A stretch of 64,000 nt of DNA from a virus, in the IMG/VR virus record IMGVR_UViG_3300017917_000332, positions 10,453-74,452 of that record. One strand, given 5' to 3'. The notes under the pieces are model-generated. The model had not been told where the DNA came from and did no database searches. It worked only from the letters and a program-made list of their open reading frames with translations. Shown in pieces: positions 2-30,940 of the stretch. Position numbers and translations under genes: made by a program. The first letter of the stretch is position 1. Each line of letters begins with the position of its first letter.

Positions 2-172
2 CACAAAGATAGGGATACATTTATTAATGGTGTTCAAACTAATAACGGGAAACATAACCTATTATTATGCCAATGGAGAGATAGTTTAAACGATGCAAGA
101 GAAAAGCTATCTAAAACATTATACTATTCATTCTGGGATAAACAGTACCTAGAAGAAATTCTAAAAACTTAG
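2..172 (+). CDS. 3' end of a hypothetical protein (truncated by the window edge)
   Basis: Open frame 2 read by hand: HKDRDTFINGVQTNNGKHNLLLCQ...YYSFWDKQYLEEILKT*, stop TAG at 170-172. Confidence 0.6.
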   Translation, partial: HKDRDTFINGVQTNNGKHNLLLCQWRDSLNDAREKLSKTLYYSFWDKQYLEEILKT

Positions 173-969
173 TTCCTAGAACTAAGTTCTTTCACTAGCC
201 AGTCTTCAAATACACCTTCTATACGAATAGTCCAACTAATTGGTTTAACAGGTTCAGCATCACCGTGAAAGTCGTGATTGTTCCAATAATAACTTATTCC
301 ACCTGAAATCTTGTAGTTAGCGCCATTTACCTCGTCTTGGACATATAGATGTCTTAACTTTAGAGGATCAAACCACATAAAATGTTCTTGGTGATCGTAG
401 TCATCTCGATTAAAGAACAGATCCTTATGCATAGGTACTGATTTACCAGAAGTCTTTAATAATAAGAATACTGGTCCCATTTTTTTAAAGGGTAGTGTTT
501 CTGCCCAAGATCTCAAAGAAGCAAAGTTGTTAGAAGCCTCTGTCCAAAAGAAGTTAAAGTTATTTTCTTTTAAAGCATCACAGGGCTCATAATCCCAGAA
601 CTGCGGTTTTTCGTAGTCTCGAAGTACTAGGTATGTAAAGTATTCCTGCACTTTATATTCATAGGCTAACCAGTACTCAAACGCAATCTTGTCTGTTTCT
701 AGTAGCTCTAGCCCCTTGGCTTTTTTTTCAGTATCAGTATCGTTAATCCAACAGTTATAAGCTGTAGCAAAATCTTTAGGAGAATCTTTTGCAGTATCTA
801 TTGTAGTAATATCATTAGCTACCTTAACATAGTTTGCTCTTATGTGAGCATGAGATTTTGCTATTCCGTAATTTACATCACTAACTAGGCTTAAAAGTTT
901 TTCAGCATTGGAATAATGATCTAAACACACATAAGGCTTGCCAAATACACCTTTCATCACAAATTCCAA
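169..969 (-). CDS. putative Fe(II)/2OG-dependent oxygenase (cupin/AspH-like)
   Basis: C-terminal HxD (PMHKD) plus distal His (NHDFHG), followed by a beta strand with Arg (WTIRIEG). Confidence 0.55.
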   Translation of the reverse strand: MEFVMKGVFGKPYVCLDHYSNAEKLLSLVSDVNYGIAKSHAHIRANYVKVANDITTIDTAKDSPKDFATAYNCWINDTDTEKKAKGLELLETDKIAFEYWLAYEYKVQEYFTYLVLRDYEKPQFWDYEPCDALKENNFNFFWTEASNNFASLRSWAETLPFKKMGPVFLLLKTSGKSVPMHKDLFFNRDDYDHQEHFMWFDPLKLRHLYVQDEVNGANYKISGGISYYWNNHDFHGDAEPVKPISWTIRIEGVFEDWLVKELSSRN

Positions 970-1517
970 TACTCTTCTTTAATATCTAAAATCATAGTAA
1001 CACGCCACTGGTCACTTTTGTTCCAACCGCCGTGCTTTTTCATACCGTCAAACGAAACAATATCGCCAGTGTCCCATCCTTTAGTTTCGCCTTCTACGTG
1101 GAAGCCTACAACATTTGGATCTGTACTAGGCATACTGATACCAATCATAGTACCATATGCTCTAACCTTACCAACAACTTCTTCACTTAAATCCCAGTAA
1201 TCGTCGGTGTGATCTGGAATATAACTCTTTGGCTGGATAAAGTTAACACAGACGTTTAGTACCCCAGGGATACTTTTTAAAACCTTCATAGTCTTTGGCC
1301 AGTTCTGTGCATATTGGTCATTTATTCTAGTGGCATCAATCAGTGGTAGTCCCCACCAACCTAAATGATCACCTTCGCCATATCTTTCACTAAACTTAAT
1401 ACCGTCTTTAGTTGGCTCAAAATTTTCCTTCCATGTGCCGTATTCTTCAATAAGTGTATCTTTTAGTTCAACTAGTTTAGCATAGTGTTGGCATTTTTTA
1501 GAATCAATCCAGTTCAT
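957..1517 (-). CDS. aspartyl/asparaginyl beta-hydroxylase-family Fe(II)/2OG oxygenase
   Basis: IPDHTD...SFDGMKKHGGWN.S.QWRVTMILD matches the AspH-family HxD...H...R pattern; GGAG Shine-Dalgarno upstream. Confidence 0.8.
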   Translation of the reverse strand: MNWIDSKKCQHYAKLVELKDTLIEEYGTWKENFEPTKDGIKFSERYGEGDHLGWWGLPLIDATRINDQYAQNWPKTMKVLKSIPGVLNVCVNFIQPKSYIPDHTDDYWDLSEEVVGKVRAYGTMIGISMPSTDPNVVGFHVEGETKGWDTGDIVSFDGMKKHGGWNKSDQWRVTMILDIKEEYWNL

Positions 1518-1534
1518 ATTTTTCTCCTGATAAA

Positions 1535-2671
1535 TTATTTAAGTATTTTAGATAAGGTGTCTTTAATAAATGTCATTTCTTCTTGAGAAATGTCATAAAA
1601 ACATAAATGCCAAAACTTGTCCCAGTTGTGATATAGACCAGAGTCATTTAGTGTTTGTTGAAAATTAGTAAAATCATTAGGATACGCTTGTATCATACTA
1701 CCTTTAGCTGTAGCTGTTATACCCTTGTCTAGAAATATAGTTTCTAAGCTCTTGACATAAGGTATAACTGTGTTGTCTATGTAAGATAATAAGTTATTAT
1801 TGTTAATAAAATCAATTGTTGCTACTGCGGCAACTGCACCTATAGTGTTAGTACTCCTAGTGTTACCTATTGCCAACCAACTGTTACTTACAACTTCTGT
1901 AATTTTAGAATCAAGAACAGTCAAACAGAGATTGTCGTGTCCTGAGGTCAATGCTTTTCCTAAAACTATTATGTTAGGCTTTAGTCCTAAAGAATGACTG
2001 TGTACCCAACAACCCATTCGTCCTATACCCGTTAGCACTTCGTCAACGCATAATAAAAGATTGTGTTTAGTAATTGTAGTTTGTAAAGAATTCCACCAAT
2101 CGGCTGGGTTATCAGATAGGCCTTTTCCCCAAGGTACTGTATCTACTAACACGCCTGCTATATTGTCTGCACCAATTTGGTTAACAGTTAATTCTAAATC
2201 ATCAAAAAATTCTACAAATGTTACTGACGGCCAGTCTTTGCTAAAAGGTTGCCCGTGAACCATTTGCCATCCTGTAATCGAGCCACTGTGGTAACTATTT
2301 TTTCTAACAAGAATAACATTTCTTTTCTGTCCTTGTTCAGCCCAGTAGTTCCACATTATTTTTATAGCATTATCTACGGCATCGCTACCTGACAGTGCAG
2401 ATATAAAAGAGCTATATCTACTATCAGTAATAGCATCAATAGACTCTTCTAAGTCGTTCCAAACTTTATGTTTCAGTCTCCAGAAACTTGTATTAGCATT
2501 ATCTAAATGTAACTTTATTCTATCAGTAATAAACTTGTTACCGTAGCCTAATACGTTAGTGCCTGCAGATGCATGTAGATCAAATTTATTATTGATGTAA
2601 TGACCAGATGCATTTAACAACACATCTGAGTTGTATCCTTGGTTTATTGTAAAAATATCTAAACGTTTCAT
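1535..2671 (-). CDS. class III PLP-dependent aminotransferase
   Basis: SGSDAVDNAIK, SYHS, DEVLTGIGRMG, and the PLP lysine in LGKALTSG. Confidence 0.9.
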   Translation of the reverse strand: MKRLDIFTINQGYNSDVLLNASGHYINNKFDLHASAGTNVLGYGNKFITDRIKLHLDNANTSFWRLKHKVWNDLEESIDAITDSRYSSFISALSGSDAVDNAIKIMWNYWAEQGQKRNVILVRKNSYHSGSITGWQMVHGQPFSKDWPSVTFVEFFDDLELTVNQIGADNIAGVLVDTVPWGKGLSDNPADWWNSLQTTITKHNLLLCVDEVLTGIGRMGCWVHSHSLGLKPNIIVLGKALTSGHDNLCLTVLDSKITEVVSNSWLAIGNTRSTNTIGAVAAVATIDFINNNNLLSYIDNTVIPYVKSLETIFLDKGITATAKGSMIQAYPNDFTNFQQTLNDSGLYHNWDKFWHLCFYDISQEEMTFIKDTLSKILK

Positions 2672-3705
2672 ACAATACTTCTTTTCTGACCTTCTCTCTC
2701 AAGGTCAAGAGTACAACAGTGAACTCCGCTTTCCCAGAATAGACCGTGTCGTAGTCTAGTAGAGTAGCATTCTATACCCTGTGACTCAAGATACTTTTCT
2801 AGCTTAGGTTGAGGATTGCTTAACAAAATCTTATTATGATCAAGTACTAGAACGTTTGTATCAAAACAAACATCTTGTGCATAACCTCGCCACTCACCAA
2901 ACCACTTTTGCATCCAAGCTTCTGTAAACTTGCCGCCGCTAGCTTTCATATCACTAACATACCGAGACAAGTCTGGAAACGAAACATAATCTTTTATTTC
3001 AATGACCCTTTTGTTTTGTAAGCAAACAGGTACCCAATCTTTAGTTAAGCAAACTACGGTTTCATCGTCGGTCATAAACCAACATTGATCAATGTGTCCC
3101 CAACCGTTAGAACTAGTACCGACATTATCTACTATGTTAGTTCCCCTAGGAAGATTTCTTCTCAACCATTCTTGTCCTAATTTAGTTCCCGGACCTTCAT
3201 GATTTAAGATTAAACAGTCTCCGGTCTTAGATGCTGTAGCTGTATGCAACAGCAATTTTTCTTTGTATCGTTCTTGGTATATTTCTACACCTTTAGTAAA
3301 CCAAACTTCGTCATTTTGAAGTTTAGGAATATCAGGTATTGGCTGTTGTATCCAGTTATATCCCTGTTTAAACAATTCCGTAAAGATGTTATAATAAAAA
3401 TACTGATCGTAATAACGTTCTTTCATGCTAGTAAATGTGCTGTATATACAGTCGCCATATACTAGATATTGATCCCTTGGAACCATTGGAGGCATTACAT
3501 TCTCAGCAGAGCTAGATACCGTTGGACGGTACACTTCGATGCCAAAAGATTTTAAAAGAGTTGCTAAACTGTCAAAGTCTTCTTTGGTTTCTTCTAGTAT
3601 TTTCGCAAGATATCCGTCAACTTGGTTGTTGTCGGTCTTGAAATCAGTTGTAGTATCTCCTACTACAACTTTGGTTAATCTATCCCATTCGGTCCAAACT
3701 GTCAT
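2668..3705 (-). CDS. amidinotransferase (glycine/inosamine-phosphate amidinotransferase family)
   Basis: N-terminal TEWDRL..VVVG, PRDQY, GHID, C-terminal SGVHCCTLDL carrying the catalytic Cys. Confidence 0.88.
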   Translation of the reverse strand: MTVWTEWDRLTKVVVGDTTTDFKTDNNQVDGYLAKILEETKEDFDSLATLLKSFGIEVYRPTVSSSAENVMPPMVPRDQYLVYGDCIYSTFTSMKERYYDQYFYYNIFTELFKQGYNWIQQPIPDIPKLQNDEVWFTKGVEIYQERYKEKLLLHTATASKTGDCLILNHEGPGTKLGQEWLRRNLPRGTNIVDNVGTSSNGWGHIDQCWFMTDDETVVCLTKDWVPVCLQNKRVIEIKDYVSFPDLSRYVSDMKASGGKFTEAWMQKWFGEWRGYAQDVCFDTNVLVLDHNKILLSNPQPKLEKYLESQGIECYSTRLRHGLFWESGVHCCTLDLEREGQKRSIV

Positions 3706-3748
3706 AATAAAATTATTCTTTACACACTACTTACCTGATAAGTACAGC

Positions 3749-4441
3749 ATGTTTCAAGAATACGAATACTACTATAACAATGTTCCAGGAATTGGACTTT
3801 GTAGAAATAATCTAATCTATACTAGTTTAATAAACAAAGATAAGACAGTGTTTGTCCAATGGTACCACAACGACAGCGAGTATCACAGGGGACAAAACCA
3901 AGTAGTCGATCCATCTAAGATGGAAGAAAAATGGTTAAGAGAAGTTAATTACCTTACACAGATGCGAAATGCATATCCGGATTTGATTCCTAAAATTATT
4001 AAGATTGATCTGGACGCCAAGAAGATTTACTTAGAGATCGAAGGTCCCGACTTTTGGGAACAAGCAGGATGTGACACAAATAACTACGATAAAGTTCTTC
4101 CTGATTGGCAAGATCAAATGTTGAACATCATTCAATCACATCGTGAATTAGGATTCCACAAATACAGTATGCACCCTAGCAGTTACTTTGTAGTTGGAGG
4201 TAAACTAAAAAGTATCAACTACTTCTTTACTTACAAGGATCATGAACCAAACATATCAATAGCAGACGTAGAAAGTCACATCTACTCAACTAGACAAGAT
4301 GAGATGCGTAAGCACTTATCAACACTAGGTATAGATTGGAACAAACCTCAGCCGTGGAGTGTATTTGATACACTATGTTGGGAAAGTTTTAGAACTAACT
4401 ATCCAGCAGAATTTATTGAGAAGGTCAAATGTATAAAATAA
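3749..4441 (+). CDS. protein-kinase-like fold protein with degenerate catalytic motifs
   Basis: REVNYL..M...PKII.ID...IYLE layout; probable start ATG 3749 just after TAAGTA (the ORF-track extension to 3539 overlaps the divergent gene). Confidence 0.5.
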   Translation: MFQEYEYYYNNVPGIGLCRNNLIYTSLINKDKTVFVQWYHNDSEYHRGQNQVVDPSKMEEKWLREVNYLTQMRNAYPDLIPKIIKIDLDAKKIYLEIEGPDFWEQAGCDTNNYDKVLPDWQDQMLNIIQSHRELGFHKYSMHPSSYFVVGGKLKSINYFFTYKDHEPNISIADVESHIYSTRQDEMRKHLSTLGIDWNKPQPWSVFDTLCWESFRTNYPAEFIEKVKCIK

Positions 4442-4983
4442 TTCCGTGGAGTCAAGATCTCGACTTGACAGAGTTTTACAAAACAGCAGAAGAAAAAGGC
4501 TTTGTAAATAATGCTAGCCAAAAGATGCTCGTTGATAGTTTAGCAAAAGAGAAAGAATGGTGCGTGTGGATTCTTTACTACAACAATAACGCCATAGGCA
4601 GTGTAGGCGCACATTCTTTTCCTGAAATAGGTAATAACTGTTACAGAATAGCGGTAAGGACCTGTGTCTTTTCTGATAAGCTACCGCACAACGGTCTTAG
4701 AACTGCAAATCAAATTGTAACACACCAACACGCAACTTCACAATTCTTAATACCTGCTTGCATAGATTGGGCACCAAAAGGTAGTAGATTGTTTATCACC
4801 AGCAACGAGAGCAGTGTTGGAACGCAAAGACTAGTACATAGAATCTTTGCACCAGCAATGGTTAAAACAGGACAGATGGCAAGAGTCTGTGAGATGCACT
4901 ATAGAGGCACAGATCAAACAGTGTGGGAACTATTTCCAGATGTCTTTATGGAGAATTTGAAGAAACACCCGCGTTGGCAATAA
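4429..4983 (+). CDS. GNAT-like N-acyltransferase
   Basis: WILYY...IGSVGAH...YRIAVRTC strand order and ~180 aa length are typical of a GNAT fold. Confidence 0.5.
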   Translation: MYKIIPWSQDLDLTEFYKTAEEKGFVNNASQKMLVDSLAKEKEWCVWILYYNNNAIGSVGAHSFPEIGNNCYRIAVRTCVFSDKLPHNGLRTANQIVTHQHATSQFLIPACIDWAPKGSRLFITSNESSVGTQRLVHRIFAPAMVKTGQMARVCEMHYRGTDQTVWELFPDVFMENLKKHPRWQ

Positions 4984-6055
4984 GTTTGTCTTCTAGGTCG
5001 TATTCTATACACGGGTCAAATATCCTTGCCGCACTTTCAGAGCAGATAAGACCGCAGGCCGCTAGCCTACCATCATCATAACCGTTGTCCCATCCTGCCT
5101 TTATCTTAGAAAAGAACTCACTGTTTACAACATCATACCAACTATTCTTGAGAATATTAACTTTATCACCACCGTAGTTTTCCCATAAGGTAGTCCAACT
5201 ATCACCTAGTTCTTTAGTTTTATATAAATGAAAACAAGTTCCTGTGTAGACACAGGGGAAAACATATCCTTCTGCACTAATATAGATACTGCTCTTCCTT
5301 TGGGCTTCGCAGGTTATTGGACTGTTGTTAGATATGGCCAGAGCATCGTGTATTTTAAAAACTCGATGTTTGCTGAGAATTAGTGGATGTACTAATTGTT
5401 TATTCGTTGGTTGTTCAATTTTAATTTGAAGTTTCTTATTGATGCTTTGCATTTCAAAAAGCGCATCTAATAAGAACTTATGACTCTTACGAACAATAAA
5501 TCTATCAAATCCTTGGCTCAATGCAAACTGTCTTGCTTCTTCAACTTGATGTTCATTATGTTTAAAAGCAATCCACTGCCATTCAGCTTCGCCGCCTGCA
5601 TCAATAAACGCTTTAGAATTTTCAACAACCTTATTCCATCGCACATTTACTCTATAGATATGGTTAGTGTCTTCTAATCCGTCAATAGCAAATCTAACCC
5701 ACGAGCCTTTTCCAAGGATAGTAGCAAGTTCTGCCCACCATTCTGGATTACGCATACCACCGTTAGTACTAACTTTAATGTTAATATGGGGTGCTCTTTG
5801 CTTAATAGCCTTACAAACTTCTAAGAAATTTGGTGCGGCACAGGGATCACCAACCATTCCGCTAAAGAATATAGTGTCTAAATTAGCTAAAACTTCACCA
5901 GGAATAGTTTCTGAATAGAACTCAACTGGCAAATAGCTTTGGTTGAACCAACTATAATCGCCTGGTTTAAGTTCTCTAGTGCAACTTGGACAGGCCGCAT
6001 TACATAATGCACTATGTTCAATGTCTAGTTCTTTGATCTGCTTGTAAAAATCCAT
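4946..6055 (-). CDS. radical SAM protein with C-terminal SPASM/twitch-like Cys region
   Basis: CNAACPSC; GDP; STNG; IDGL; C..(IYISAEG)VFPC..CGLIC; probable start MDFYKQ at 6055. Confidence 0.9.
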   Translation of the reverse strand: MDFYKQIKELDIEHSALCNAACPSCTRELKPGDYSWFNQSYLPVEFYSETIPGEVLANLDTIFFSGMVGDPCAAPNFLEVCKAIKQRAPHINIKVSTNGGMRNPEWWAELATILGKGSWVRFAIDGLEDTNHIYRVNVRWNKVVENSKAFIDAGGEAEWQWIAFKHNEHQVEEARQFALSQGFDRFIVRKSHKFLLDALFEMQSINKKLQIKIEQPTNKQLVHPLILSKHRVFKIHDALAISNNSPITCEAQRKSSIYISAEGYVFPCVYTGTCFHLYKTKELGDSWTTLWENYGGDKVNILKNSWYDVVNSEFFSKIKAGWDNGYDDGRLAACGLICSESAARIFDPCIEYDLEDKLIANAGVSSNSP

Positions 6056-6096
6056 GAATATATTTATGGGGTGTGCTACCATGAATAAATATTTCC

Positions 6097-6714
6097 ATGG
6101 AACGCCAAATTAAACTTGACCTCACTGCTGATATTAACGAACTTAGAGAGTTCTATAATACCATTAAGACAGACTTTGCTGACAGAAAATGGATAGCAAC
6201 TGAGCAAGCAAAGTATATTAAACGAGAAGCATACAATAACCCAAACATTGATCTTTCAAAGATGCCAGGCGGTTGGGCATTAACAACATATCTCAAAGAC
6301 GACAGCCAAATATGCGCACCTTGGAATGTTTTAACTAACGATTTTACCGACGGAAAGAAAAGAACCAACATGGTATTTGGTATTGCAGAACGTCTATTAG
6401 ATAAAATACCTATGGCATATAGACTAGGAATCAGTGTTACCCCAGGCGGCAACTATATTGAATCACACGAAGATGACGCATGGCATATACATTTTCCAAT
6501 TTATAGTCCGCCTAAAAGTTTCTTTACCTGGGACAATGAGAATAGAGAACCAGTAGACTGGGAACATTACGAAGCTGACGGAACTTCATGGGCGTTAAAC
6601 ACTCAACTAATGCACAGTGTTAAGAATTTAGATACAGAAGATAGAGTACACATGTTCTTTAGCGTCAAGCAAGAAGACATGCCAGCATTGTTACAAATTA
6701 CAGGACAGATATGA
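6097..6714 (+). CDS. AspH-family Fe(II)/2OG hydroxylase
   Basis: ESHED..WHIHFPI...LNTQLMHSVKN...DRVHMFF. Confidence 0.8.
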   Translation: MERQIKLDLTADINELREFYNTIKTDFADRKWIATEQAKYIKREAYNNPNIDLSKMPGGWALTTYLKDDSQICAPWNVLTNDFTDGKKRTNMVFGIAERLLDKIPMAYRLGISVTPGGNYIESHEDDAWHIHFPIYSPPKSFFTWDNENREPVDWEHYEADGTSWALNTQLMHSVKNLDTEDRVHMFFSVKQEDMPALLQITGQI

Positions 6715-7310
6715 AGATACTAATAACAGGCCATACTACTGGCCTAGGAGAATTTCTTGCCGATCATTTCTCTAAAGATGGACACGTTATAATAGGTGTT
6801 AGTAGATCTACCGGGTTTGACCTAACTAAAGATGTTAGTAAAGTAGAGAGTCTAGCAAAAGACTGTGACCTAGTAGTTTTAAATTCAAATGCCGGCCAAA
6901 TGGAACTACTAGAGCTGTTGGCATTAGAGAAAAAGTTAATAGTTATGGGAAGTATTGCAGGTCAATACGATCAACTTATTCAAAGTGAATACAGTAGCAC
7001 CAAGAAAAAACTTGCCGAACGTTGTAAAAATCTAAGTTTAGATCCAAAAGTTAAACTACTTCACCTCACAATATCTATGTTAGAAGATGCTATAAGTACT
7101 GACAAAGGAATTACTTTTCTAGAAGTTTACCAAACTATTAACAGTTGGTTAGGTAATCCGTGTTATAATAACATAGATTACGAATTTAAACTAACGCCAT
7201 TCACTTTAGAGCAAATTAAAACTAAGTTTGGCGCAACACAAGAAAGCATCGATAGAATTACACAAAATGTCTGTGACCGAACAAAAGCACAAGTTTTACC
7301 AAATACTTGA
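6711..7310 (+). CDS. short-chain dehydrogenase/reductase
   Basis: MKILITGHTTGLG Rossmann motif, NAG, GS, YSSTK (YxxxK). Confidence 0.85.
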   Translation: MKILITGHTTGLGEFLADHFSKDGHVIIGVSRSTGFDLTKDVSKVESLAKDCDLVVLNSNAGQMELLELLALEKKLIVMGSIAGQYDQLIQSEYSSTKKKLAERCKNLSLDPKVKLLHLTISMLEDAISTDKGITFLEVYQTINSWLGNPCYNNIDYEFKLTPFTLEQIKTKFGATQESIDRITQNVCDRTKAQVLPNT

Positions 7311-8658: not shown

Positions 8659-9671
8659 ACGTTGTAAAAGTTCTTCAAAAATGGCCTAACGACACGTTAC
8701 GCATCGAAATGATGATCGGTAACACTTGTAATTACAAGTGTTGGTACTGCTTTCCCGGTAGTAACGAAGGCACACATCGCTGGCCAGACTTTGAAAGATT
8801 TAAAACCAATACACATCATTTGCTGAAGTATTACCAAGAACAGCTAGGAAAAAATAAGTTTGAAATACATTTCATCGGCGGCGAACCAACGCTGTGGCCT
8901 GAACTCGGCGAGTATGTAAAGTATCTCAAAGAGAATTTTAATGTGGTAACTTCTATGAGTACTAACGGATCAAGAACGATTCGTTGGTGGAAAGAATACG
9001 GAAAGTACTTTGATAAAGTAGTTATAAGCTGTCATTACGAAGCAATTGATGTACAGCATGTATGCGATGTTGGAGATATTTTATACGATCAAAAAGTTAT
9101 TGTCGGCGGATTAGTATTAATGGATCCTAACAACTGGGACAAGTGTTGGGAAGTCATGAAAGGTGTCTGTAAAAGTAAAAGGAGTTGGGGTGTTGACCTT
9201 CAAGAACTTTACGTACAAGGCCAAAAGATTGAATATACCCCTGAACAAATAAAACTCTTAAGAAAGCATCGCTTTAGACAAATAAACATTTTTCACTTTT
9301 TTAAAAATAACAAACACACTCTACAAAGAGTGAAAGTTGAATTTGAAAACGGTAAAACTCAACGAGTAAAAAGCAACGAGATTATTCTAAACAAGTGGAA
9401 TAAGTTTAAAGGTTGGGACTGTAATCTTGGCATTGACAGTATTTTTATCAGTAAAGAAGGATACGTTACAGGTGCCTGCGGTGAAAAACTTTACAACCTT
9501 GACTTTAAATATAATATTATGGATCAAGACTTTCCACAAAAGTTCAATCCATCAATTACCACAACTACCTGTTATCAAGAAAATTGCTGGTGTCAACCAG
9601 AGTCTAACTTAACTAAGAGTCAAGAAAATCCTGTTTACACTAAAAAGATTATTCCGATACTACCTGTTTAG
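8655..9671 (+). CDS. radical SAM protein with C-terminal twitch-like domain
   Basis: CNYKCWYC; GGEPT; STNG; C-terminal CNLG..C..C..CWC. Confidence 0.92.
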   Translation: MNVVKVLQKWPNDTLRIEMMIGNTCNYKCWYCFPGSNEGTHRWPDFERFKTNTHHLLKYYQEQLGKNKFEIHFIGGEPTLWPELGEYVKYLKENFNVVTSMSTNGSRTIRWWKEYGKYFDKVVISCHYEAIDVQHVCDVGDILYDQKVIVGGLVLMDPNNWDKCWEVMKGVCKSKRSWGVDLQELYVQGQKIEYTPEQIKLLRKHRFRQINIFHFFKNNKHTLQRVKVEFENGKTQRVKSNEIILNKWNKFKGWDCNLGIDSIFISKEGYVTGACGEKLYNLDFKYNIMDQDFPQKFNPSITTTTCYQENCWCQPESNLTKSQENPVYTKKIIPILPV

Positions 9672-10542
9672 TAATAGGAATATCTGCGGCACACGTACAC
9701 CAGTCTCTAGTACATATAACTGGATCGCTAGGAGCAACAAAGCTATCTTCATAAATGTTGCCTAGGCTACCACCAACTCTACAAGTTGCTCGATGTACTT
9801 CCCCATCCCAATTGATCATGAGGCTTTCGAGACCGGCGTTACATGTCCAGTCTTTATACTTGTTTAGATGTAACTTAATCACATCGTTAGCATGTATTAC
9901 TTGTTCGTTATCAATTACACAGTTACCTTGAACTGTAGCATCTTGTTCTTTAATCCATGCTAGGTCATCTGGGTGATAACGCATGTCGTCAAACAGATTA
10001 TGATCGCCTTCTGTCCATCGAATTCGTCTTACGGTACACGGAATACTGTCATGTATCAATAGTCCCCTAACAAACTTAACTTGATGCATGTAGTCATGAT
10101 GCGACATAATCTGACCAATGAGTTTTTTATTAGATTTTTCTGCTAACTGTTGTAATGTTTTAACTACTCTTCGCCACTCGAATTCAAAATGTATGCTAAA
10201 CACATACTGTTCTACTGGTAATGATTGATAAAACTCAAACGGTAAAGTGCCGTTAGTTGTTACACTGATCCAACTAACACCTTTATACTTTGCATACTTT
10301 ACTAGTTCGTAAAACTTAGGGTGTACACAGGGTTCGCCGCCTGTGAAACTTAGGCGAACGGGTTTATTTAAAGACACTAGTTTATCTATAGCAGACTTTA
10401 ACACTTCTATATCAGTGTGCGGACTAGAATTGTCATGTATCGAACTTGGACAATAGCTACAATCGTAATTGCAACGTTTGCCTAAGTTCCATTCAACCTT
10501 AATGCTATCTTGATGAGGCCAACGACTAGTTACCTTAAACAT
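9649..10542 (-). CDS. radical SAM protein with C-terminal twitch-like domain
   Basis: CNYDCSYC; TGGEP; TTNG; CNAG..C..C..CTC. Confidence 0.92.
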   Translation of the reverse strand: MFKVTSRWPHQDSIKVEWNLGKRCNYDCSYCPSSIHDNSSPHTDIEVLKSAIDKLVSLNKPVRLSFTGGEPCVHPKFYELVKYAKYKGVSWISVTTNGTLPFEFYQSLPVEQYVFSIHFEFEWRRVVKTLQQLAEKSNKKLIGQIMSHHDYMHQVKFVRGLLIHDSIPCTVRRIRWTEGDHNLFDDMRYHPDDLAWIKEQDATVQGNCVIDNEQVIHANDVIKLHLNKYKDWTCNAGLESLMINWDGEVHRATCRVGGSLGNIYEDSFVAPSDPVICTRDWCTCAADIPITKQVVSE

Positions 10543-11800
10543 AAGGTTTAAACTCCGGAACTGCTTGAAGAAGATCTTGATTTCTAGTTTTATCTAATCT
10601 TCGATTAAATTCTAAAAAGTCATTCCATAGATGACTTTGATCTTTAGCACGTAGATAGTTAATGTTATCTTTTATCTGTTGCTGTGTGATTTTTTCTAGT
10701 ATAGGATACTTCTCGACGTTGCTAAAAGTAAACACACGACTTGCTATTGCTTCGAGCCTAGATATTGCTAGTTCTTTTAGATCTTGTGGCAAGACTTGTG
10801 CTGACAATACATTAGGATAACTAACTCTATGGCTATAAAAGACAATGTTTAAGTGATTGATGAAATAATCAATACATTCCGCTGCCTGTAATATATTACC
10901 CGCTTGGGCTGTGAATGCCCCGACAACTCTACTAACATTTGGTATCGTTTGTATTTCTCTAATGTTAGCCTCCACTTGAGAAAAGTTACCGTTACCACGA
11001 ATGTAATTATAAACATCGTGAATGCCGTCAATGCTAACATTAACGGCAACTGACTTAAAATAAGGCCAATAGTCATGAATTGTTCTTCCTTTGCTTATAC
11101 CTAGTGTTGTTCCATTGGTTGCATACTTGATTTCAATACTCTTTCCATAAGGTTTAAGCATATCTAAAATCTTATAGTGATGAGGATCCATTAACGGCTC
11201 ACCGCCCGCAAATTCTACACGCCTAAAATGTGGAAGTAACTTTTCAAAACTAGCCCACCATTTATCTGTATCATCAAATGGTCCAATATATTGTCCAGGC
11301 TTCTGAACTAATTTTCCAATAGTTGGCACTAGATAGTTGTTTTCTTTTTCGTAAAAGGGTTTTACTTCGTCCCAGTCTTGCCAGCTAGTGCTGTCTAAAG
11401 GATTGCACATTCTGCATTTTAGATTGCAGAGGTTATTAATTTTAATTTCCATTGTAGGAAATTCAAAAGGCAATGTATAGTTGTCAGTTAACTGATCAAG
11501 TGCTGTTGGATATAAGTTTATTCTAGCTTCGGGTATGACGCCGTTGATGTGTCGTTGTCTTAGACTTTCAACGCCCTGATCTTCTAGATCAAAACAAGGC
11601 TTACATACATCAGGACGCCCTCCGTTTAAGACTTGTCGTCTAACTTCTTGCATCTTAGAATTGTTCCATACCTCTTCTAAGCTATTTTCTTGTATCCAGC
11701 CAATAGGTTGACTGCGGCAACATATTTTAATTGCACCGTCTTCTCGTGTTGCCAGTCCTGTAAAAGGATGCATACAGAATGTCTTACTTTGATTGTTCAA
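10535..11800 (-). CDS. radical SAM protein with N-terminal twitch-like domain
   Basis: FCMHPF..ICC..CKPC; CNLKCRMC; AGGEP; probable TTG start at 11800, overlapping the upstream stop. Confidence 0.9.
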   Translation of the reverse strand: MNNQSKTFCMHPFTGLATREDGAIKICCRSQPIGWIQENSLEEVWNNSKMQEVRRQVLNGGRPDVCKPCFDLEDQGVESLRQRHINGVIPEARINLYPTALDQLTDNYTLPFEFPTMEIKINNLCNLKCRMCNPLDSTSWQDWDEVKPFYEKENNYLVPTIGKLVQKPGQYIGPFDDTDKWWASFEKLLPHFRRVEFAGGEPLMDPHHYKILDMLKPYGKSIEIKYATNGTTLGISKGRTIHDYWPYFKSVAVNVSIDGIHDVYNYIRGNGNFSQVEANIREIQTIPNVSRVVGAFTAQAGNILQAAECIDYFINHLNIVFYSHRVSYPNVLSAQVLPQDLKELAISRLEAIASRVFTFSNVEKYPILEKITQQQIKDNINYLRAKDQSHLWNDFLEFNRRLDKTRNQDLLQAVPEFKPYV

Positions 11801-12500
11801 TTGCCCACTCTCGTTCTTTACACCAAAAACATTTCCCGCACGTTGGCACAAACTGTCCCGGTGTGTAGGTCTCATAAGTTATGTTTGGAAATTCGCCTTC
11901 ACAACTTCTGGTTAAGTTTAACAACTTTTCAAGACCTAATTCTTTATATTTTAACACAATCCAACTCTTATCTACAAACCTAAAAGGATGACAAGCTAAC
12001 TTGCCCAAATGAATCATTTTTTCTAAATGCCTGTTATCATTAGTTGGATCGATATTTCTTGCTTCTGGACCGCCTTCGACATTTTTAGGATTTCGAGTAA
12101 CTCCGTTAAAGTATGCATCGACGTCGTAGGTAATGCATACGTATTCTGCAAAAGATCTTAATTCTAAAGTATCACCGCTAACAGTTTTACCATACTCATC
12201 TGTTATCATTGTACCATAGGCGTGTTCCATTTCTGGAGGTATAAAATTAGTATGTAACTCAAAGTTTATATGAACAAACTCTTGTCTTAACCAATTATAA
12301 ACATTTTTAAAATCTTGTTGTTGCCAAGGTTTAGTTTTCCAGCACCGTATGTTATTAATAATGTGTACGGTAAACGGCTCAACACTATTATCTTTAACTG
12401 TTTGGCATACCATATAAGCCAACAAGGCACTGTCAGCACCGCCGCTAACGGCAATAGCAACGCTTCTCCAATCTTTGCTAAACGGTATTTCAACTTTCAT
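11784..12500 (-). CDS. QueC-like PP-loop ATPase (7-cyano-7-deazaguanine synthase-like)
   Basis: AVSGGADS PP-loop; TRSC...CGKCFWC zinc site as in QueC; start MKVEIP at 12500. Confidence 0.75.
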   Translation of the reverse strand: MKVEIPFSKDWRSVAIAVSGGADSALLAYMVCQTVKDNSVEPFTVHIINNIRCWKTKPWQQQDFKNVYNWLRQEFVHINFELHTNFIPPEMEHAYGTMITDEYGKTVSGDTLELRSFAEYVCITYDVDAYFNGVTRNPKNVEGGPEARNIDPTNDNRHLEKMIHLGKLACHPFRFVDKSWIVLKYKELGLEKLLNLTRSCEGEFPNITYETYTPGQFVPTCGKCFWCKEREWAIEQSK

Positions 12501-12510
12501 AAGTATAATT

Positions 12511-13188
12511 ATGCTCACAAAACTTCCACAGAAATTTTCTATAGACCCAATAGTTGATCAAGTTAACAACTTATCTTTTGAAAAAAGATTGGATCTTAAT
12601 CGTCCAACTGGTAAGTTTTTTAACGACCCTTGGGAAACATTGTCAGAATTTCAAAACACTCCAATTGGCGAAGTTTTAAATACAGTTGGATCAATTGGGC
12701 AAGCAAGACTTTTAAAGTTAGAATCTGCTGAAAGTTATACTGCTCATGCTGACCCCGACGATAGAATACATCTTGCTATTGTTACTAATCCGTATAGTTT
12801 TTTAGTTGACATAACCGATAATCATCTACATCATTTGCCAGCTGACGGTCAGCTTTGGTATATGGATACTGGGAAGATTCATGTTGCGGCAAACTGGGGA
12901 GCCACTACACGAATACACTTAAACATTAGGGTATTATTACCTAAACTAGATAGATCTAAAGAAGTTCTACAGATTAAAGTGCTTAGTGGCGGTTTTGATT
13001 GGAAACAAGCATCTTACTTGCCAATTATGAAACTAGTTAATAAAGATGTAAAGTCTGGAAACATTACTGGATTTGAGTCAAGCAACGAAAAAGAACTTTT
13101 CTTAAACATAAACGACAAGTCTGAGATTATTAAGATGCTAGAGAATATAAAGCAACACGGTATAGATATAATTACCAATACTTTATAG
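12511..13188 (+). CDS. AspH-family Fe(II)/2OG hydroxylase with C-terminal extension
   Basis: YTAHADPDDRIHLAI...MDTGKIHVAAN...RIHL; start ATG 12511. Confidence 0.78.
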   Translation: MLTKLPQKFSIDPIVDQVNNLSFEKRLDLNRPTGKFFNDPWETLSEFQNTPIGEVLNTVGSIGQARLLKLESAESYTAHADPDDRIHLAIVTNPYSFLVDITDNHLHHLPADGQLWYMDTGKIHVAANWGATTRIHLNIRVLLPKLDRSKEVLQIKVLSGGFDWKQASYLPIMKLVNKDVKSGNITGFESSNEKELFLNINDKSEIIKMLENIKQHGIDIITNTL

Positions 13189-14278
13189 GATCTTCTTTCT
13201 TAACAGTTCCCTCAACTAATTGTTTAAGATTAGTTGAACAACTCTTAACACATACTAATTTCTTATCAGTTGTAAAGTGCTTGGGCAAGGTTTCATTCCA
13301 ATTTGAGTCTAACAATACTTGTATAATGTTAGAACCATGCAATGATGGAATACCAATATCTTGTTTGATATCTTCTCCGGATATGCGCAATCTTTCTCTG
13401 ATAATAAAGTCTGCGCCAGTAGTTGGTAAATGCTCTGCTGTCATTAAACTACCAACGAAACAACATGGCCATACTTCTCCAAGCGCATTTACAAATAAAT
13501 CTTTTCCTGTTGCACACTTGGCATCGATAATAGAATCATCAATCATCTTTTTGTAGACTTCTTTATCAACTAGTCTAACAAAATTTGGTTGCATTACTTT
13601 TTCGCCAAACTCAGGAAGTGTTGGACTTTGAATGTAGTATTCAATGTTTCCTTGCTTATCTTTAACGGGATAATTTTCTAATCCGTAAAATCTTTGTGTT
13701 GGTTTTAAAGCAACTTCGTCAAAGCCTAGACCTAATAGAAAGTCTTTTAGCTCGTGGACTCTAGCTTCATTATGCTTAAAAATAATAGTATCGGACTTTG
13801 CTCGGCCACCGGCTGCAATATATGTCTTTGCATTTTCAATAACCTTAGACCAACTAGTGTTTCTTCTGTAGATTTCGTGTTCACCTTCAAACCCGTCAAT
13901 GGCAAAAATAACATGACCTCTATTGCCAAGGACCTTAGCAAGACTTGTCCACCAGTCTTTGTTTCTTAGACTGCCGTTAGTGTGTATGTCAAGTCTACAG
14001 GTTTCTTTTGTGTTCTCTACAAGGTACTGAAAAATTTCTAAACAATCTCTAGCAAGTAGGGGATCTCCGTTATTGCCGCAGGCATAAAAGTGATCCAACT
14101 GCATTAGAAACTCTCTAGGAAACCACTGTTTAAATTCTTCTAACGAAATTTCTACGTTTCTAATATGACTTCTTTCTGCACCACCAAATACGTTTCTTGG
14201 ACACATAGGACACGCGGCTTGGCACTTATCAGTCAGCTCGATATGTACTGATTTAATGTTATAAGGATATACTTGCAT
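13172..14278 (-). CDS. radical SAM protein with SPASM/twitch-like domain
   Basis: CQAACPMC; CGNNGDP; HTNG; IDG; C..VWPCC..CVKSC. Confidence 0.92.
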   Translation of the reverse strand: MQVYPYNIKSVHIELTDKCQAACPMCPRNVFGGAERSHIRNVEISLEEFKQWFPREFLMQLDHFYACGNNGDPLLARDCLEIFQYLVENTKETCRLDIHTNGSLRNKDWWTSLAKVLGNRGHVIFAIDGFEGEHEIYRRNTSWSKVIENAKTYIAAGGRAKSDTIIFKHNEARVHELKDFLLGLGFDEVALKPTQRFYGLENYPVKDKQGNIEYYIQSPTLPEFGEKVMQPNFVRLVDKEVYKKMIDDSIIDAKCATGKDLFVNALGEVWPCCFVGSLMTAEHLPTTGADFIIRERLRISGEDIKQDIGIPSLHGSNIIQVLLDSNWNETLPKHFTTDKKLVCVKSCSTNLKQLVEGTVKKEDPIKYW

Positions 14279-14879
14279 CGCGTTTTCCAATAATCATAAA
14301 TCTTTTATATAAGGGTAACTCTAGTTCGCCGGCCCAGATAACATTTAAACGACTTTGATCTTTAAACTGTTCTAAAGATTCAGCTATCCTTACGTGTTCT
14401 GGTATTTGATAGTTGTTAGACTGCAACACAATCAAACTATCTAAAGGTAATTTAGATAGCCACTTATCGTATTGCTCTTGTGTAATGTGTTCAAAGCTAG
14501 TGTTGATAATAATGTCAGCGCGACTATTGTATTCGCACATATCAGCAGTTACAGCACGAAACCGTCCTGTTTGTAGTTCTAGCTGATTCATTGTGTTGGC
14601 AATCTCTTCGCAGGTTGGGTCTATGTCAATACTGGTTATTCTTTCAATAAACATAGTGCTTTGAAACATCAAACTTGCTAGAGTGCCTACCCAACCTCCG
14701 TGAATGTCTATAGTTGGCCAATCTTTATGATGATATCGTTGCTTCTGTAGCTCATCAATAAGCCATTCTTTACTACGTATCTGTCCCTTCCAGAATGCGT
14801 CCATAGTACGCATAGGATCTTTGCTGTTTCTAATAGCTAACATCCAGTAATGGATGTGATCGAGGTCAAGCTCTATCAA
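14259..14879 (-). CDS. class I SAM-dependent methyltransferase
   Basis: IHGGWVG motif I, SIDID acidic strand, IINTSFEH. Confidence 0.75.
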   Translation of the reverse strand: MIELDLDHIHYWMLAIRNSKDPMRTMDAFWKGQIRSKEWLIDELQKQRYHHKDWPTIDIHGGWVGTLASLMFQSTMFIERITSIDIDPTCEEIANTMNQLELQTGRFRAVTADMCEYNSRADIIINTSFEHITQEQYDKWLSKLPLDSLIVLQSNNYQIPEHVRIAESLEQFKDQSRLNVIWAGELELPLYKRFMIIGKRDASISL

Positions 14880-15858
14880 ACTGTGCTCCTAGCTTATCAA
14901 ATTTACCGCACTGTTTAGCACACTCTAACAAAGGCTCTTTGTCCCAAGTGTCTGATATCTTTCCAAAATATCCACTATCAAACATTTCTTTTAGAGACAT
15001 TTTGTTAAGATTAGGAATAGTTCTAATACGATCCATATAGTCTACTCGAGAATCTTGCCTAGGCAAAATCCATTGGAAATCTAACCAACAGCAGGGACTT
15101 ACGTTTCCGTTTGCCGCAACATAAAGTTGATTAGTTTGTTTTGCTTTACAACTAATTGATGAAGGCTTAATCTCAATAATAGATTCTTGAACCTGCTGTA
15201 TCATTCCAGAACTTCTTTCTGTAGGATAAATGATATGAGTAGTATAACCTTCATCGTCGAGAACATGTAATTTGTTCCCTGTAAACCGTGAAGTATGTTT
15301 TGTAGTAAAGTGTTTGAATCCGTATTGCTCGCTAAGAGCTTTGCAGTCCTCTACTTGATGTTCGTTATGTTTAAAAACTAGCATGTGCCATTCAGCATTG
15401 CCACCTGCTTCGATAAATGCCTTAGCATTTTCAATAATCTTGTGCCAGTCCGTTGATATACGATATAAATGATGTGTGTCAGCTAGTCCATCTATGCCAA
15501 AAGTAGTTCTTACATCAAGTTTAGCAAGCTCTTTCCACCATTCGGTAGTCCTAGCACTTCCGTTAGTATGCATACTCAAAGCAATATTAGGGTTATGCTC
15601 TTTGAGATACTGATAAATTTCTAAAGTATCTTGGGCAATAATAGGATCGCCTAGGTTACCACACATGATTAAACTTCCTAGTTGCTTAACAAAGTCAACT
15701 GGGAACCATTCTTTAAACTGTTCAAGTGTAATCTCCTCAAGGTCAATTAACGGATTCATTATACCGCCATTGACTCTTCTAGGACACATAGGACACCTAG
15801 CTTGGCATTTAGATGTTACTTCAAGGTGTATAGATTTTATATCTTCGTAATTGTACAT
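14866..15858 (-). CDS. radical SAM protein with SPASM/twitch-like domain
   Basis: CQARCPMC; CGNLGDP; HTNG; IDGL; C..VSPCC..CAKQC. Confidence 0.92.
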   Translation of the reverse strand: MYNYEDIKSIHLEVTSKCQARCPMCPRRVNGGIMNPLIDLEEITLEQFKEWFPVDFVKQLGSLIMCGNLGDPIIAQDTLEIYQYLKEHNPNIALSMHTNGSARTTEWWKELAKLDVRTTFGIDGLADTHHLYRISTDWHKIIENAKAFIEAGGNAEWHMLVFKHNEHQVEDCKALSEQYGFKHFTTKHTSRFTGNKLHVLDDEGYTTHIIYPTERSSGMIQQVQESIIEIKPSSISCKAKQTNQLYVAANGNVSPCCWLDFQWILPRQDSRVDYMDRIRTIPNLNKMSLKEMFDSGYFGKISDTWDKEPLLECAKQCGKFDKLGAQFDRA

Positions 15859-16829
15859 GTCTTTGGTATTTTCGAATCTGCTGAACTAACGCAACTAGGT
15901 GTAATACACTGTTGCGGTTGTTTAAACAATTCAAATCCTGTTGTTAGTGTGCCTAGTGGTTGATCGTGGCAACTGTAGCTACGTTTAACCTCGGCTCCCC
16001 TGATTATAACACTTTGATATCCAGCATTACAAGTCCAGTTGGTAAATTTATTAAATCCAAATGCATTAAATCTTTCAGCTTGATCAAACAAGTATTCTGT
16101 GTTGTCTTTGTCATACAGAGCAATTTGATAAACTTCTTCACCTTGAGACTGTTGAGGGAAACCATTTTTCATTAAATGAATCATGTCTTCAGTATATCCA
16201 TCAACTACTTGACTAGCAGTTGGATCGCTTTGTGGCTTTAGAGTAACGTTAATTCCTCTACTGTGCAGTCTAGACATCCTGTCGTAAAGCTCGTAGAACT
16301 TTTCTGGAACCATAACTTGATTAACAGTAACGTAGACGTTTTCGTCAATAAGTTTTAAACACTTGTCTCCAAATTCAGATTCTTTAGCAAATTCTGCATG
16401 ATAGCTGGCTGTAATACTTCTGCGCTGTAAAGCAGATGTTATACTTGCCCAGGTCTTCCACCAATTGATGCTGGGACTAAGATTAGTAGTCATGTGTATG
16501 CTTTGATATGGGCTGACTAAATCTTGTTCTAAATGTCTAGTTAGGTCTAGCAGTCTTTTATAAGCAGTAGGTTCCCCGCCACTAAAACTCCAATGAAATT
16601 CAGTAAATCCATTTTGGCGAGCTTGCCGTTTGATTTCATCAATAGTCTGAACATATAATTCAAATGATTGGTAATCGAGCTCATCGGACCTAGCATAGGG
16701 CCAGCAGTAAGAACATTTATAATTACAGAAGCGACCAAGTATCCAACTAACAGAAAACAATGGCCTATTGAGCATTGTCCTTTGTCCAAAACGGACAATA
16801 TCCTTAAATGGTATAGTATCGAAGTTCAT
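15837..16829 (-). CDS. radical SAM protein with C-terminal twitch-like domain
   Basis: CNYKCSYC; SGGEPT; CNAG..SC..C..CVSSAD; probable start ATG 16829. Confidence 0.92.
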   Translation of the reverse strand: MNFDTIPFKDIVRFGQRTMLNRPLFSVSWILGRFCNYKCSYCWPYARSDELDYQSFELYVQTIDEIKRQARQNGFTEFHWSFSGGEPTAYKRLLDLTRHLEQDLVSPYQSIHMTTNLSPSINWWKTWASITSALQRRSITASYHAEFAKESEFGDKCLKLIDENVYVTVNQVMVPEKFYELYDRMSRLHSRGINVTLKPQSDPTASQVVDGYTEDMIHLMKNGFPQQSQGEEVYQIALYDKDNTEYLFDQAERFNAFGFNKFTNWTCNAGYQSVIIRGAEVKRSYSCHDQPLGTLTTGFELFKQPQQCITPSCVSSADSKIPKTCTITKI

Positions 16830-16857: not shown

Positions 16858-16863
16858 TACAAT

Positions 16864-30932: not shown

Positions 30933-30940
30933 TTAGTAAT

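Follow-up and report, generated by a model that had tools for sequence, protein, structure and literature searches.

A 64,000-nucleotide stretch of viral DNA, hereafter the window (bases 10453–74452 of the 74,452-bp IMG/VR virus record IMGVR_UViG_3300017917_000332; CheckV completeness ~20%), carries an island of radical S-adenosylmethionine (rSAM) and tailoring enzymes. We find that the core of this island is co-inherited as a block among related phages, that purifying selection holds it as tightly as it does the replication genes, and that orthologous clusters reside in Bdellovibrionota, a new finding. The source is a ~350-kb uncultured aquatic jumbo phage of the myovirus type. The core consists of NtwiD (W10) and NtwiE (W13), two rSAM enzymes with an N-terminal twitch module; the short rSAM enzymes W11, W12 and W19; two or three of W07, W16 and W18; a PP-loop ATPase; a probable methyltransferase; oxygenases of the 2-oxoglutarate (2OG) type, AspH-like and others; and a kinase-like/GNAT pair. 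How the island divides into core and accessory parts, how large it truly is, and that it has a chromosomal counterpart in Bdellovibrionota all go beyond a preliminary description of the same DNA that had been made from its letters alone.

Anatomy of the island and its conservation among jumbo phages

Exactly 19 consecutive open reading frames (ORFs) lie back to back on both strands between positions 169 and 16835, their ends abutting or overlapping, in keeping with the 19 enzyme-like genes of the preliminary description; the overlap of stop and start codons suggests co-translation. As also stated there, the cluster runs past the left edge of the window: the 10.4-kb left flank (L001, given in contig coordinates), which reaches the left end of the contig, adds 11 genes including four rSAM genes and a tryptophan halogenase, and together with the ~17-kb window part makes up an island of at least 27 kb. 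Three of the left-flank rSAM enzymes are of the N-twitch type and one bears a Zn ribbon of the pterin-methylase type; also encoded in the flank are additional paralogues of the cupin-like and kinase-like types, and a pair of SGNH/DUF6473-like proteins. Transmembrane segments are absent from all 31 island proteins, and every island product is a soluble cytoplasmic enzyme. Window genes are labeled W01–W20 and left-flank genes Lg; G000 is the source contig, and other L and G labels denote related loci and genomes, among them the near-complete relatives G001 (331 kb, 93% complete) and G002 (357 kb, 100% complete). The likely true starts are 3749 for W05 (the ORF as listed starts at 3539; the later start was taken because orthologues are 226–234 residues long), 7267 for NtwiD, 12511 for W15 and 16829 for W19. 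The genes are as follows, with position, strand, description and the supporting evidence.

169–969, minus: W01, 266-aa 2OG/Fe(II)-oxygenase-like protein, paralogue of Lg09; accessory (family motif)
957–1517, minus: W02, AspH-type Fe(II)/2OG hydroxylase; accessory (PF05118 E 1.2e-16, 61.4 bits)
1535–2671, minus: W03, class-III pyridoxal-phosphate aminotransferase; accessory (PF00202 E 2.8e-31)
2668–3705, minus: W04, amidinotransferase of the AGAT/StrB1/HsvA fold family; accessory (PDB sequence search)
3749–4441, plus: W05, ~230-aa kinase-like protein (RIO/Bud32-like), distant paralogue of Lg06; conserved periphery (weak profile)
4429–4983, plus: W06, GNAT-fold acyl/acetyltransferase; conserved periphery (predicted fold)
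4946–6082, minus: W07, rSAM with C-terminal SPASM-like Cys motif (PF04055 29.0 bits; SPASM E 0.0034)
6097–6714, plus: W08, AspH-type hydroxylase (PF05118 E 9.3e-6, 26.0 bits)
6711–7310, plus: W09, short Rossmann protein, weakly like short-chain dehydrogenases/reductases (SDR) (adh_short E 4.2e-5; RmlD_sub_bind E 0.007)
7228–8658, plus: W10 (NtwiD), N-terminal-twitch rSAM; core, island anchor (NF033640 404 bits)
8655–9671, plus: W11, short rSAM with C-terminal Cys-rich tail; core (PF04055 E 3.3e-13)
9649–10542, minus: W12, short rSAM, STM4011-like but a non-member; core (PF04055 E 2.5e-12)
10535–11875, minus: W13 (NtwiE), N-terminal-twitch rSAM; core (NF033640 319 bits)
11784–12518, minus: W14, PP-loop ATP pyrophosphatase with C-terminal 4-Cys site; core (PP-loop E 1.9e-4)
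12475–13188, plus: W15, AspH-like cupin; core or periphery (PF05118 E 1.9e-4, 21.7 bits)
13172–14290, minus: W16, rSAM with SPASM-like C-terminus (PF04055 E 1.2e-8)
14259–14879, minus: W17, small probable class-I methyltransferase; core (Methyltransf_25 E 0.028)
14866–15858, minus: W18, rSAM/SPASM; core (PF04055 E 5.2e-11; SPASM E 1.5e-6)
15837–16835, minus: W19, short rSAM; core, right end of island (PF04055 E 4.2e-11)
30923–32311, plus: W20 (NtwiF), detached sixth NF033640 rSAM (NF033640 349 bits)
L001 6907–8511 (left of the window): flavin-dependent tryptophan-halogenase homologue (PF04820 E 1e-88)
L001 101–835 and 9313–10131: two paralogous proteins with a weak DUF6473 match

Synteny across related phages, which had been named as a check on the cluster, was examined and holds: core order and orientation are kept in 79 viral contigs. 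These contigs, marine and freshwater, carry NtwiD relatives at 59–85% identity (≥50% in 77 of the 79 loci); thousands more occur in metagenomes, and the Atlas clusters around NtwiD are viral. The order kept around NtwiD is W19–W17–W18/W16–NtwiD–W11–W12–NtwiE–W14–W15, followed in relatives by cupin, kinase-like, SDR and GNAT genes. Counted at ≥40% identity and within 10 kb of NtwiD over the 79 loci, many of which lie on truncated contigs, orthologues are present in 73 loci for W17, 56 for W12, 52 for NtwiE, 47 for W14 and 45 for W19; W19 reaches ≥60% identity in 43 of the 79, and NtwiE does so in 52. W11 stands beside NtwiD and W15 follows W14 in most loci, and W06 always adjoins W05. Identities are 68–72% for W07 (in L005, L006, L007 and L043), 67% for W16 (L007, L043) and 84% for W08 (L005). 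Against the complete G002, NtwiD and W06 are 72%, NtwiE 71%, W19 65% and W05 62% identical; core proteins as a whole lie at 58–72%, on par with DNA ligase (64%) and endonuclease (66%), and the island sits in different genomic neighborhoods in G000 and G002.

Around this core the gene content is patchy. The accessory module of amidinotransferase, aminotransferase and hydroxylases is limited to three contigs, and the halogenase to one or two; L002 holds orthologues of W01 (53%, its sole occurrence), W02 (50%) and W03 (54%), and W04 has just three viral relatives, at 47–71%. Divergent copies of the tryptophan halogenase were noted in G001 and G003. Genomes G001–G005 encode 13–21 rSAM enzymes, nearly all clustered: 15 in the 331-kb relative and 13 in the 357-kb relative, each in one 22–37-kb region (13 of 13 clustered in the complete G002), and 21 in a 48%-complete relative. 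The relatives' islands measure 30–60 kb with almost no intergenic space and additionally encode B12-dependent rSAM enzymes, 2OG-FeII_Oxy_5 proteins, methyltransferases, a NodU/CmcH carbamoyltransferase, DegT, a 4,6-dehydratase-like SDR (NAD-epimerase/GDP-mannose-dehydratase), aldehyde dehydrogenase, an AMP-binding enzyme and a nitroreductase.

The phage origin proposed for the window is borne out by the IMG/VR record and by PHROG, where ligase, endonuclease and fibre-like proteins of phages are matched. When the island was compared with 50,697 phage records by Megablast, zero matches were returned, and tblastn against the same records found only ~23% identity, in Vibrio and Ralstonia jumbo phages; there, the Vibrio phage K566/6E35.1a group and Ralstonia phage RsoM2USA carry distant NF033640-like rSAM genes in a ~10-gene block, much smaller than the present island and very divergent from it. 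In the cultured 255-kb Vibrio phage K566 (OZ196521.1, 160041–171009), the ~10-gene block contains at least three annotated rSAM genes, with PagP, NAMPT and PnuC genes nearby, and is a possible experimental handle. By another gene, the closest cultured kin are PA5oct-like and T4-like jumbo phages; no cultured phage is close. In the literature on such islands we found only a passing rSAM count in one T4-like environmental genome: a 183-kb marine viral genome in which 12 rSAM genes, reported together with Fe-S-related genes, are counted as Fe-S client proteins (Nishimura et al. 2017, mSphere, PMC5332604). That uncultured large aquatic T4-like phage probably displays the same phenomenon; the study does not describe how the genes are clustered, which are core or accessory, what family they belong to or whether cells have a counterpart.

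Counterpart clusters in Bdellovibrionota

A single-sequence scan of cellular genomes with NtwiD gave no match, and only a profile scan revealed the cellular counterpart: searching the genomes of 185,579 species with a profile of the Ntwi alignment, we obtained 56 loci, ~35 of them from Bdellovibrionota (Pseudobdellovibrionaceae and Bacteriovoracaceae); these lie on one 1.9-Mb chromosome and on contigs that reach 3 Mb. The flanks of these loci are ordinary bacterial genes (LysR, dioxygenase, PhoH/PIN, AsnB). Orthologues of NtwiD at 46–51% (best), of W19 at 48–54% and, beside NtwiD, of W18 at 33–41% are accompanied by W17 homologues (29–35%), by W14-type proteins inside the rSAM clusters (25–27%) and by W12-type proteins; the same loci also hold AspH-like, B12-rSAM and GNAT genes. 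NF033640 genes are present in 31 of 151 sampled Bdellovibrionota genomes and in none of 14 control model organisms, and five Bdellovibrionota genomes contain 12–20 each. The Lg09/W01 oxygenase family occurs in three of the 151 genomes, all three NF033640-positive; the W06 family was found in none of them, and no precursor-like ORFs were found in the Bdellovibrionota clusters.

In a maximum likelihood tree (quick search, midpoint root), the phage NtwiD orthologues form one clade (Shimodaira–Hasegawa-like approximate likelihood ratio test support 100) whose sister is a Bdellovibrionota clade (support 99), and the two nest among further Bdellovibrionota sequences. Because the phage clade nests among Bdellovibrionota, a cellular origin of, or exchange with, this group is indicated; the pathway probably arose in cells and then passed to the phage lineage by capture. 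We found nothing in the literature on an rSAM expansion in Bdellovibrio. On the Bdellovibrionales chromosome OZ220490.1 (L137, L123), tandem arrays of four to seven NF033640 genes were observed; some copies are near-identical (branch lengths 0.05–0.07) and transposase-like fragments lie in the gaps, which together indicate recent local amplification.

The recurrence of the cluster bears on whether there is a single pathway at all. The island could be a ‘parking lot’ of independent auxiliary enzymes, its paralogues generated by duplication and acting on different host metabolites, a reading we hold to be improbable. Accessory content is indeed very different between relatives, the paralogues are old, T4-like aquatic phages are known for many stand-alone oxygenase-type genes, and the 12 rSAM genes of the environmental T4-like genome are merely listed as Fe-S client proteins (PMC5332604). 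Such a collection does not predict, however, that core order and orientation be kept among contigs that share only 60–85% protein identity, that three rSAM subfamilies recur together with PP-loop, methyltransferase and AspH genes in Bdellovibrionota chromosomes, or that stop and start codons overlap and Ntwi modules are fused in tandem.

Enzyme families and promoters

Eight rSAM genes are detected by Pfam (PF04055) between 169 and 16835, the number given in the preliminary description, and the CxxxCxxC motif is present in all eight (at residue 27 in W07 and residue 23 in W16). Seven exceed the curated cut-off; W07 scores 29.0 bits against a cut-off of 29.5, and 31.3 bits in the genome-wide search. 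The whole contig has 13 matches over the cut-off, 12 in the island block and the thirteenth being W20, with CxxxCxxC in 13 of 13. The auxiliary Cys clusters that had been noted are likewise supported, by SPASM/twitch matches or by extra conserved Cys residues.

Six of these enzymes belong to NF033640 (NCBIfam N_Twi_rSAM; curated cut-off 170 bits, whole protein): W10 at 404, W20 at 349, W13 at 319, Lg04 at 287, Lg03 at 281 and Lg02 at 268 bits, while the remaining seven score ≤52 bits. A catalogued family is represented here by six ancient paralogues inside a phage island, 25–30% identical to one another. In NF033640 proteins a Cys-rich twitch module at the N-terminus precedes the CxxxCxxC barrel, and a helical domain forms the C-terminus; in W10, W13 and Lg02–04, Pfam places SPASM on the N-terminal side of Radical_SAM, and, numbered from the start at 7267, the N-twitch Cys 24/42/99/102 and Cys 156/160/163 are invariant in an alignment of 40 sequences. 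A fold search (Foldseek, VIA-align) with the AlphaFold2 (AF2) model of NtwiD (mean predicted local distance difference test score, pLDDT, 89.9) gave generic rSAM-barrel matches only, covering only the barrel. W20 is 39–45% identical to copies in G001, G002, G003 and a Bdellovibrionales chromosome, and adjoins a fibre-like gene (33652–35142) with PHROG fibre/virion matches. In metagenomes, the NF033640 profile retrieves 6,943 clusters (50% identity) at E≤1e-30. Fusion analysis showed that the long proteins are mostly tandem Ntwi–Ntwi, double and triple; one other fusion is to an FkbM-like methyltransferase and one to an unannotated island family, neither offering a substrate clue. Many metagenome representatives of 800–1400 aa are head-to-tail fusions of two or three N-twitch modules, either real multi-module enzymes or merged gene calls. 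We found no characterised member of NF033640 and no paper on its function.

For the short subfamily (W11, W12, W19), likeness to NCBIfam models of viperin, STM4011 and QueE is confined to the generic rSAM core. Identity with viperin was rejected (NF038283, cut-off 180 bits: W11 55.9, W12 54.3, W19 34.7, N-terminal core only), as was membership of W12 in STM4011 (NF038073, 54.7 bits against a cut-off of 200); W12 matches the QueE model TIGR03963 weakly (2.8e-9, core only). The third subfamily, W07, W16 and W18, is of the SPASM type. PDB sequence searches with all three subfamilies returned generic rSAM matches only.

Among the non-rSAM enzymes, the four Fe(II)/2OG hydroxylases of the preliminary description stand: W02, W08 and W15 are AspH-type (W15, at 21.7 bits, falls just under the PF05118 cut-off of 22.6), and W01 is assigned by motif, an invariant H177-x-D179...H233 and R246 in its family alignment; W01 has no Pfam or PDB sequence match, and a PDB profile search with W01/Lg09 was also empty. 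The class-III aminotransferase W03 was confirmed by PF00202, and the amidinotransferase W04 by solved structures in the PDB sequence search (HsvA 1.2e-15, StrB1 (1bwd) 2.3e-11, AGAT 3e-8, SxtG 4.5e-7), its C-terminal ...GVHCC... segment aligning to that of AGAT; a single-sequence scan of cellular genomes gave no close relative of W04. The GNAT assignment of W06, which has no match in PDB sequence or profile searches, holds at the level of fold: Foldseek with its AF2 model (184 aa, pLDDT 90.8) retrieved SpeG, HP0935, AAC(6')-Ib and PaiA (E 1e-5, TM-score 0.5–0.58), and of its 185 PDB fold matches at E≤0.001 the top ones listed are GNAT proteins, protein acetyltransferases among them.

Four further assignments fared less well. 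The kinase-like character of W05 rests on a weak profile match to protein kinases/Bud32 (E 0.01) and an Atlas lead to RIO1/Kdo/APH clusters; the SDR assignment of W09, often duplicated in relatives, extends to an N-terminal Rossmann stretch with matches below the cut-off; and W17 matches methyltransferases weakly (E 0.028) and has no PDB sequence match, its GG-x-G and acidic motifs being invariant in 22 sequences. For the ‘QueC-like ATPase’ W14, the PP-loop ATPase part stands and the QueC identity does not. W14 has an invariant SGGxDS and C206, C227, C230 and C233 in a QueC-style layout (C...CxxCxxC); its PF06508 match is 16.6 bits against a cut-off of 22 and spans only the C-terminal 50–65 residues, and a PDB profile search yielded matches at the level of the PP-loop motif without retrieving QueC structures. 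In the left flank, the paralogous proteins at L001 101–835 and 9313–10131 carry G-C-S-x-T where SGNH hydrolases have G-D-S-x-T and, by this motif, are possibly esterase/acyltransferase-like enzymes with a Cys nucleophile. For a cyanophage halogenase that has been characterised, and is mentioned in PMC10452541 and PMC6864650, the natural substrate is likewise not known.

The claim that TAAATA/TAAGTA motifs are common to the island and the virion genes was upheld. TAAATA is the most enriched hexamer 5–45 nt upstream of window genes (11 observed, 0.6 expected), and in the complete relative it is the top hexamer after the Shine–Dalgarno sequence (71 observed, 5.8 expected). TAA[AG]TA precedes five island genes as well as fibre-like and large-protein genes, and is found before only one gene of the small-gene block at 17–33 kb; TAAATA lies 11 nt upstream of W08 and 12 nt upstream of the W19 ATG (16829), and TAAGTA 11 nt upstream of the W15 ATG (12511). 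Transcription from TAAATA-type promoters is likely. The T4 late promoter is TATAAATA, and by its likeness to this sequence TAAATA may be a late promoter.

Other features of the window were noted in passing. ARAGORN found no tRNA or tmRNA and Rfam, at gathering thresholds, no family in the whole window, including 16829–16972. Directly right of the island, a 57-aa ORF (17866–18039, plus strand) with an AbrB/SpoVT-like C-terminal motif, kept at 66–75% identity in 13–17 related viral loci, may encode a small DNA-binding regulator or antitoxin-like protein. A 3909-aa ORF at 40091–51820 (plus strand) is followed by ORFs of 981, 512, 880 and 830 aa; the region is partly kept in the complete relative (38% over 843 aa), TAAATA precedes several of the genes, and these ORFs are probably virion or fibre proteins.

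Candidate substrates and products

The preliminary description had proposed an uncharacterised multi-step modification pathway. A co-inherited unit with a kept core order is what stands of this; that the island constitutes one stepwise tailoring pathway on a shared scaffold is our inference. As its product we tentatively put forward a small, nitrogen-rich, amino/guanidino sugar- or cyclitol-like metabolite. In such a pathway, the rSAM enzymes would each abstract hydrogen from an unactivated carbon of the shared scaffold, leading to oxidation, C–C or C–heteroatom bond formation, epimerisation or methylation; the oxygenases would then hydroxylate the scaffold, the PP-loop enzyme would activate a carboxylate for amidation, and the transferases would attach amino, amidino, acyl, phospho, methyl, carbamoyl or halogen groups. 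Subsequent attachment of the metabolite to a phage structure is possible but not required.

A small-molecule substrate is favored, and a ribosomal peptide is less likely, because the characterised members of the transferase families that can be named use small molecules and because a precursor gene is missing. HsvA, StrB1, AGAT and SxtG all act on small amines; the aminotransferase is of class III; the GNAT is nearest to polyamine and aminoglycoside acetyltransferases; and sugar-type enzymes occur in the relatives' islands. In agreement with the preliminary description, nonribosomal peptide synthetases or polyketide synthases, a transporter and a precursor peptide were not found in the island; the islands are gap-free, and no conserved intergenic small ORF was seen in more than 80 viral loci. 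The enzyme vocabulary resembles that of aminoglycoside/aminocyclitol clusters (named examples: streptomycin StrB1, butirosin BtrN, apramycin AprD4, gentamicin GenK and tobramycin TobZ), the common elements being an amidinotransferase, aminotransferase, twitch/auxiliary-cluster rSAM enzymes, B12-rSAM methylases, carbamoyltransferase, SDR, 2OG oxygenases, kinase-like protein and GNAT. Unlike those clusters, the island has a phage as its carrier, lacks a recognised cyclitol/sugar synthase or glycosyltransferase, and has a class-III rather than a DegT aminotransferase; its rSAM enzymes are not orthologues of BtrN or AprD4 (E≥0.007; Z 8.7).

Several points weigh against a sugar- or cyclitol-like product. 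The core itself is without sugar-type enzymes, these being accessory and patchy, and offers no substrate clue; its rSAM families, all three subfamilies included, have no known reaction, and among the fold neighbors of NtwiD, sugar/nucleoside enzymes (BlsE, viperin) rank level with peptide maturases (anSME, CteB, SkfB). No scaffold enzyme (2-deoxy-scyllo-inosose or inositol-phosphate synthase) was found by Pfam in the window, the flank or the relatives' islands, where many proteins are unannotated, and no glycosyltransferase of family GT2 or GT4 scored above cut-off in the near-complete G001 and G002. About 30 of 53 non-rSAM island families have no Pfam match; Pfam annotated none of 10 further dark G002 proteins. 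The classical substrates of AspH-type hydroxylases are proteins or lipid A. Lastly, co-inheritance is no proof of a single product.

The fold neighbors and the AspH-type enzymes would fit a protein-modification toolkit, in which rSAM, AspH, kinase-like, GNAT and halogenase enzymes cross-link, hydroxylate, epimerise or methylate side chains of phage proteins (virion, fibre or giant) or of host proteins; we regard this as unlikely. The top structural neighbors of NtwiD are peptide and protein maturases (anSME, CteB, SkfB, SuiB, PqqE; Z 11–12.6), with ChlB also among the best, and a SPASM/twitch auxiliary Fe-S domain is common to both sides; PF05118 is named for protein Asp/Asn hydroxylases, the GNAT fold matches protein acetyltransferases, the kinase-like fold resembles Bud32/RIO, and TAAATA is common to fibre-like and large-protein genes. 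Unlike in maturases of peptides that are synthesized ribosomally and modified post-translationally (RiPPs), however, the auxiliary domain of NtwiD is N-terminal and not C-terminal. Neither phages nor Bdellovibrionota have a precursor gene or conserved small ORF within the island or next to it, and there is no Pfam match to a RiPP recognition element (RRE) or PqqD-type domain in any island protein, although a divergent RRE could escape Pfam. Moreover, amidinotransferases, class-III aminotransferases, carbamoyltransferases and DegT enzymes are without known protein substrates, and in relatives the island is unlinked to any particular structural gene.

A modified nucleic acid, which the preliminary description had entertained as hypermodification of packaged DNA, is weakened as an option. 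On this account, to which we give little credence, the island would act with FolE and QueD to install a 7-deazapurine- or pterin-derived base in phage DNA or tRNA, one short rSAM being QueE-like, the PP-loop enzyme QueC-like, and the others elaborating the base. Parts of the phage 7-deazaguanine pathway (FolE–QueD–QueE–QueC–DpdA) are indeed at hand: a QueD-like gene lies outside the island at 35628–36155 (plus strand; 60% orthologue at G002:C1:206358–206891), FolE (GTP cyclohydrolase I) occurs outside the island in four of four relatives searched, W14 combines SGGxDS with its QueC-style Cys site, one left-flank rSAM carries the Zn ribbon of the pterin-methylating rSAM family (PF23545 E 1.7e-10), and W12 is weakly QueE-like. 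Against this, tRNA-guanine transglycosylase (TGT)/DpdA (PF01702) gave no match in G000, G001, G002, G003 or G005 and matched 14 of 14 control genomes, although very divergent DpdA subfamilies could escape PF01702; canonical QueC was not found, the two near-complete relatives included, nor was canonical QueE or any rSAM of QueE size or score. FolE and QueD stand far apart in G002, and at least 13 rSAM enzymes are far above any known base-modification pathway. QueD and FolE without TGT/DpdA or canonical QueC/QueE look like a partial pterin/deazapurine pathway.

Equally slim, in our estimate, is the chance that the substrates are lipids, with acyl or isoprenoid chains or lipid A functionalised by radical C–C coupling, methylation and hydroxylation so that the envelope of the infected cell is remodelled, and with Bdellovibrionota perhaps acting on themselves or on prey. 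The lipid A hydroxylase LpxO is a member of PF05118; the left-flank rSAM resembles tetraether lipid synthase (Tes) along its first 206 positions (E 6.7e-20), and W11 and W12 match Tes/GDGT-MAS weakly; a fatty-acid desaturase lies inside one Bdellovibrionota cluster; and PagP is two genes past the small rSAM cluster of Vibrio phage K566. These hints, however, are single scattered genes, the Tes matches fall far under the cut-off (71 against 450 bits), the island proteins have no membrane segments, and acyltransferase, acyl-carrier or lipid A enzymes were not recognised in the islands.

A wider proposal, possible but doubtful, is that the multi-rSAM core is an undescribed biosynthetic or modification system common to two kinds of bacterial ‘predator’, Bdellovibrionota and ~350-kb aquatic jumbo phages of a cosmopolitan clade, the latter having captured it, and that its product, a heavily radical-tailored metabolite of a new class or a surface/virion decoration, serves to attack or exploit Gram-negative cells. 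On this proposal, the uncultured jumbo phages may themselves infect Bdellovibrionota.

Some of the most difficult reactions in biology are carried out by rSAM enzymes, and here a virus spends 10–17% of a ~350-kb genome on 13–21 of them together with tailoring enzymes. Solving one member of NF033640, a family of ~7,000 metagenome clusters, would annotate a very large amount of dark matter, viral and bacterial, and new enzyme chemistry would probably come to light, together with a natural product or modification not seen before. Through Bdellovibrionota, function could be tested in cultivable, or at least cellular, systems, and the uncultured jumbo phages, an abundant clade, gain a concrete, testable hypothesis on host or ecology.

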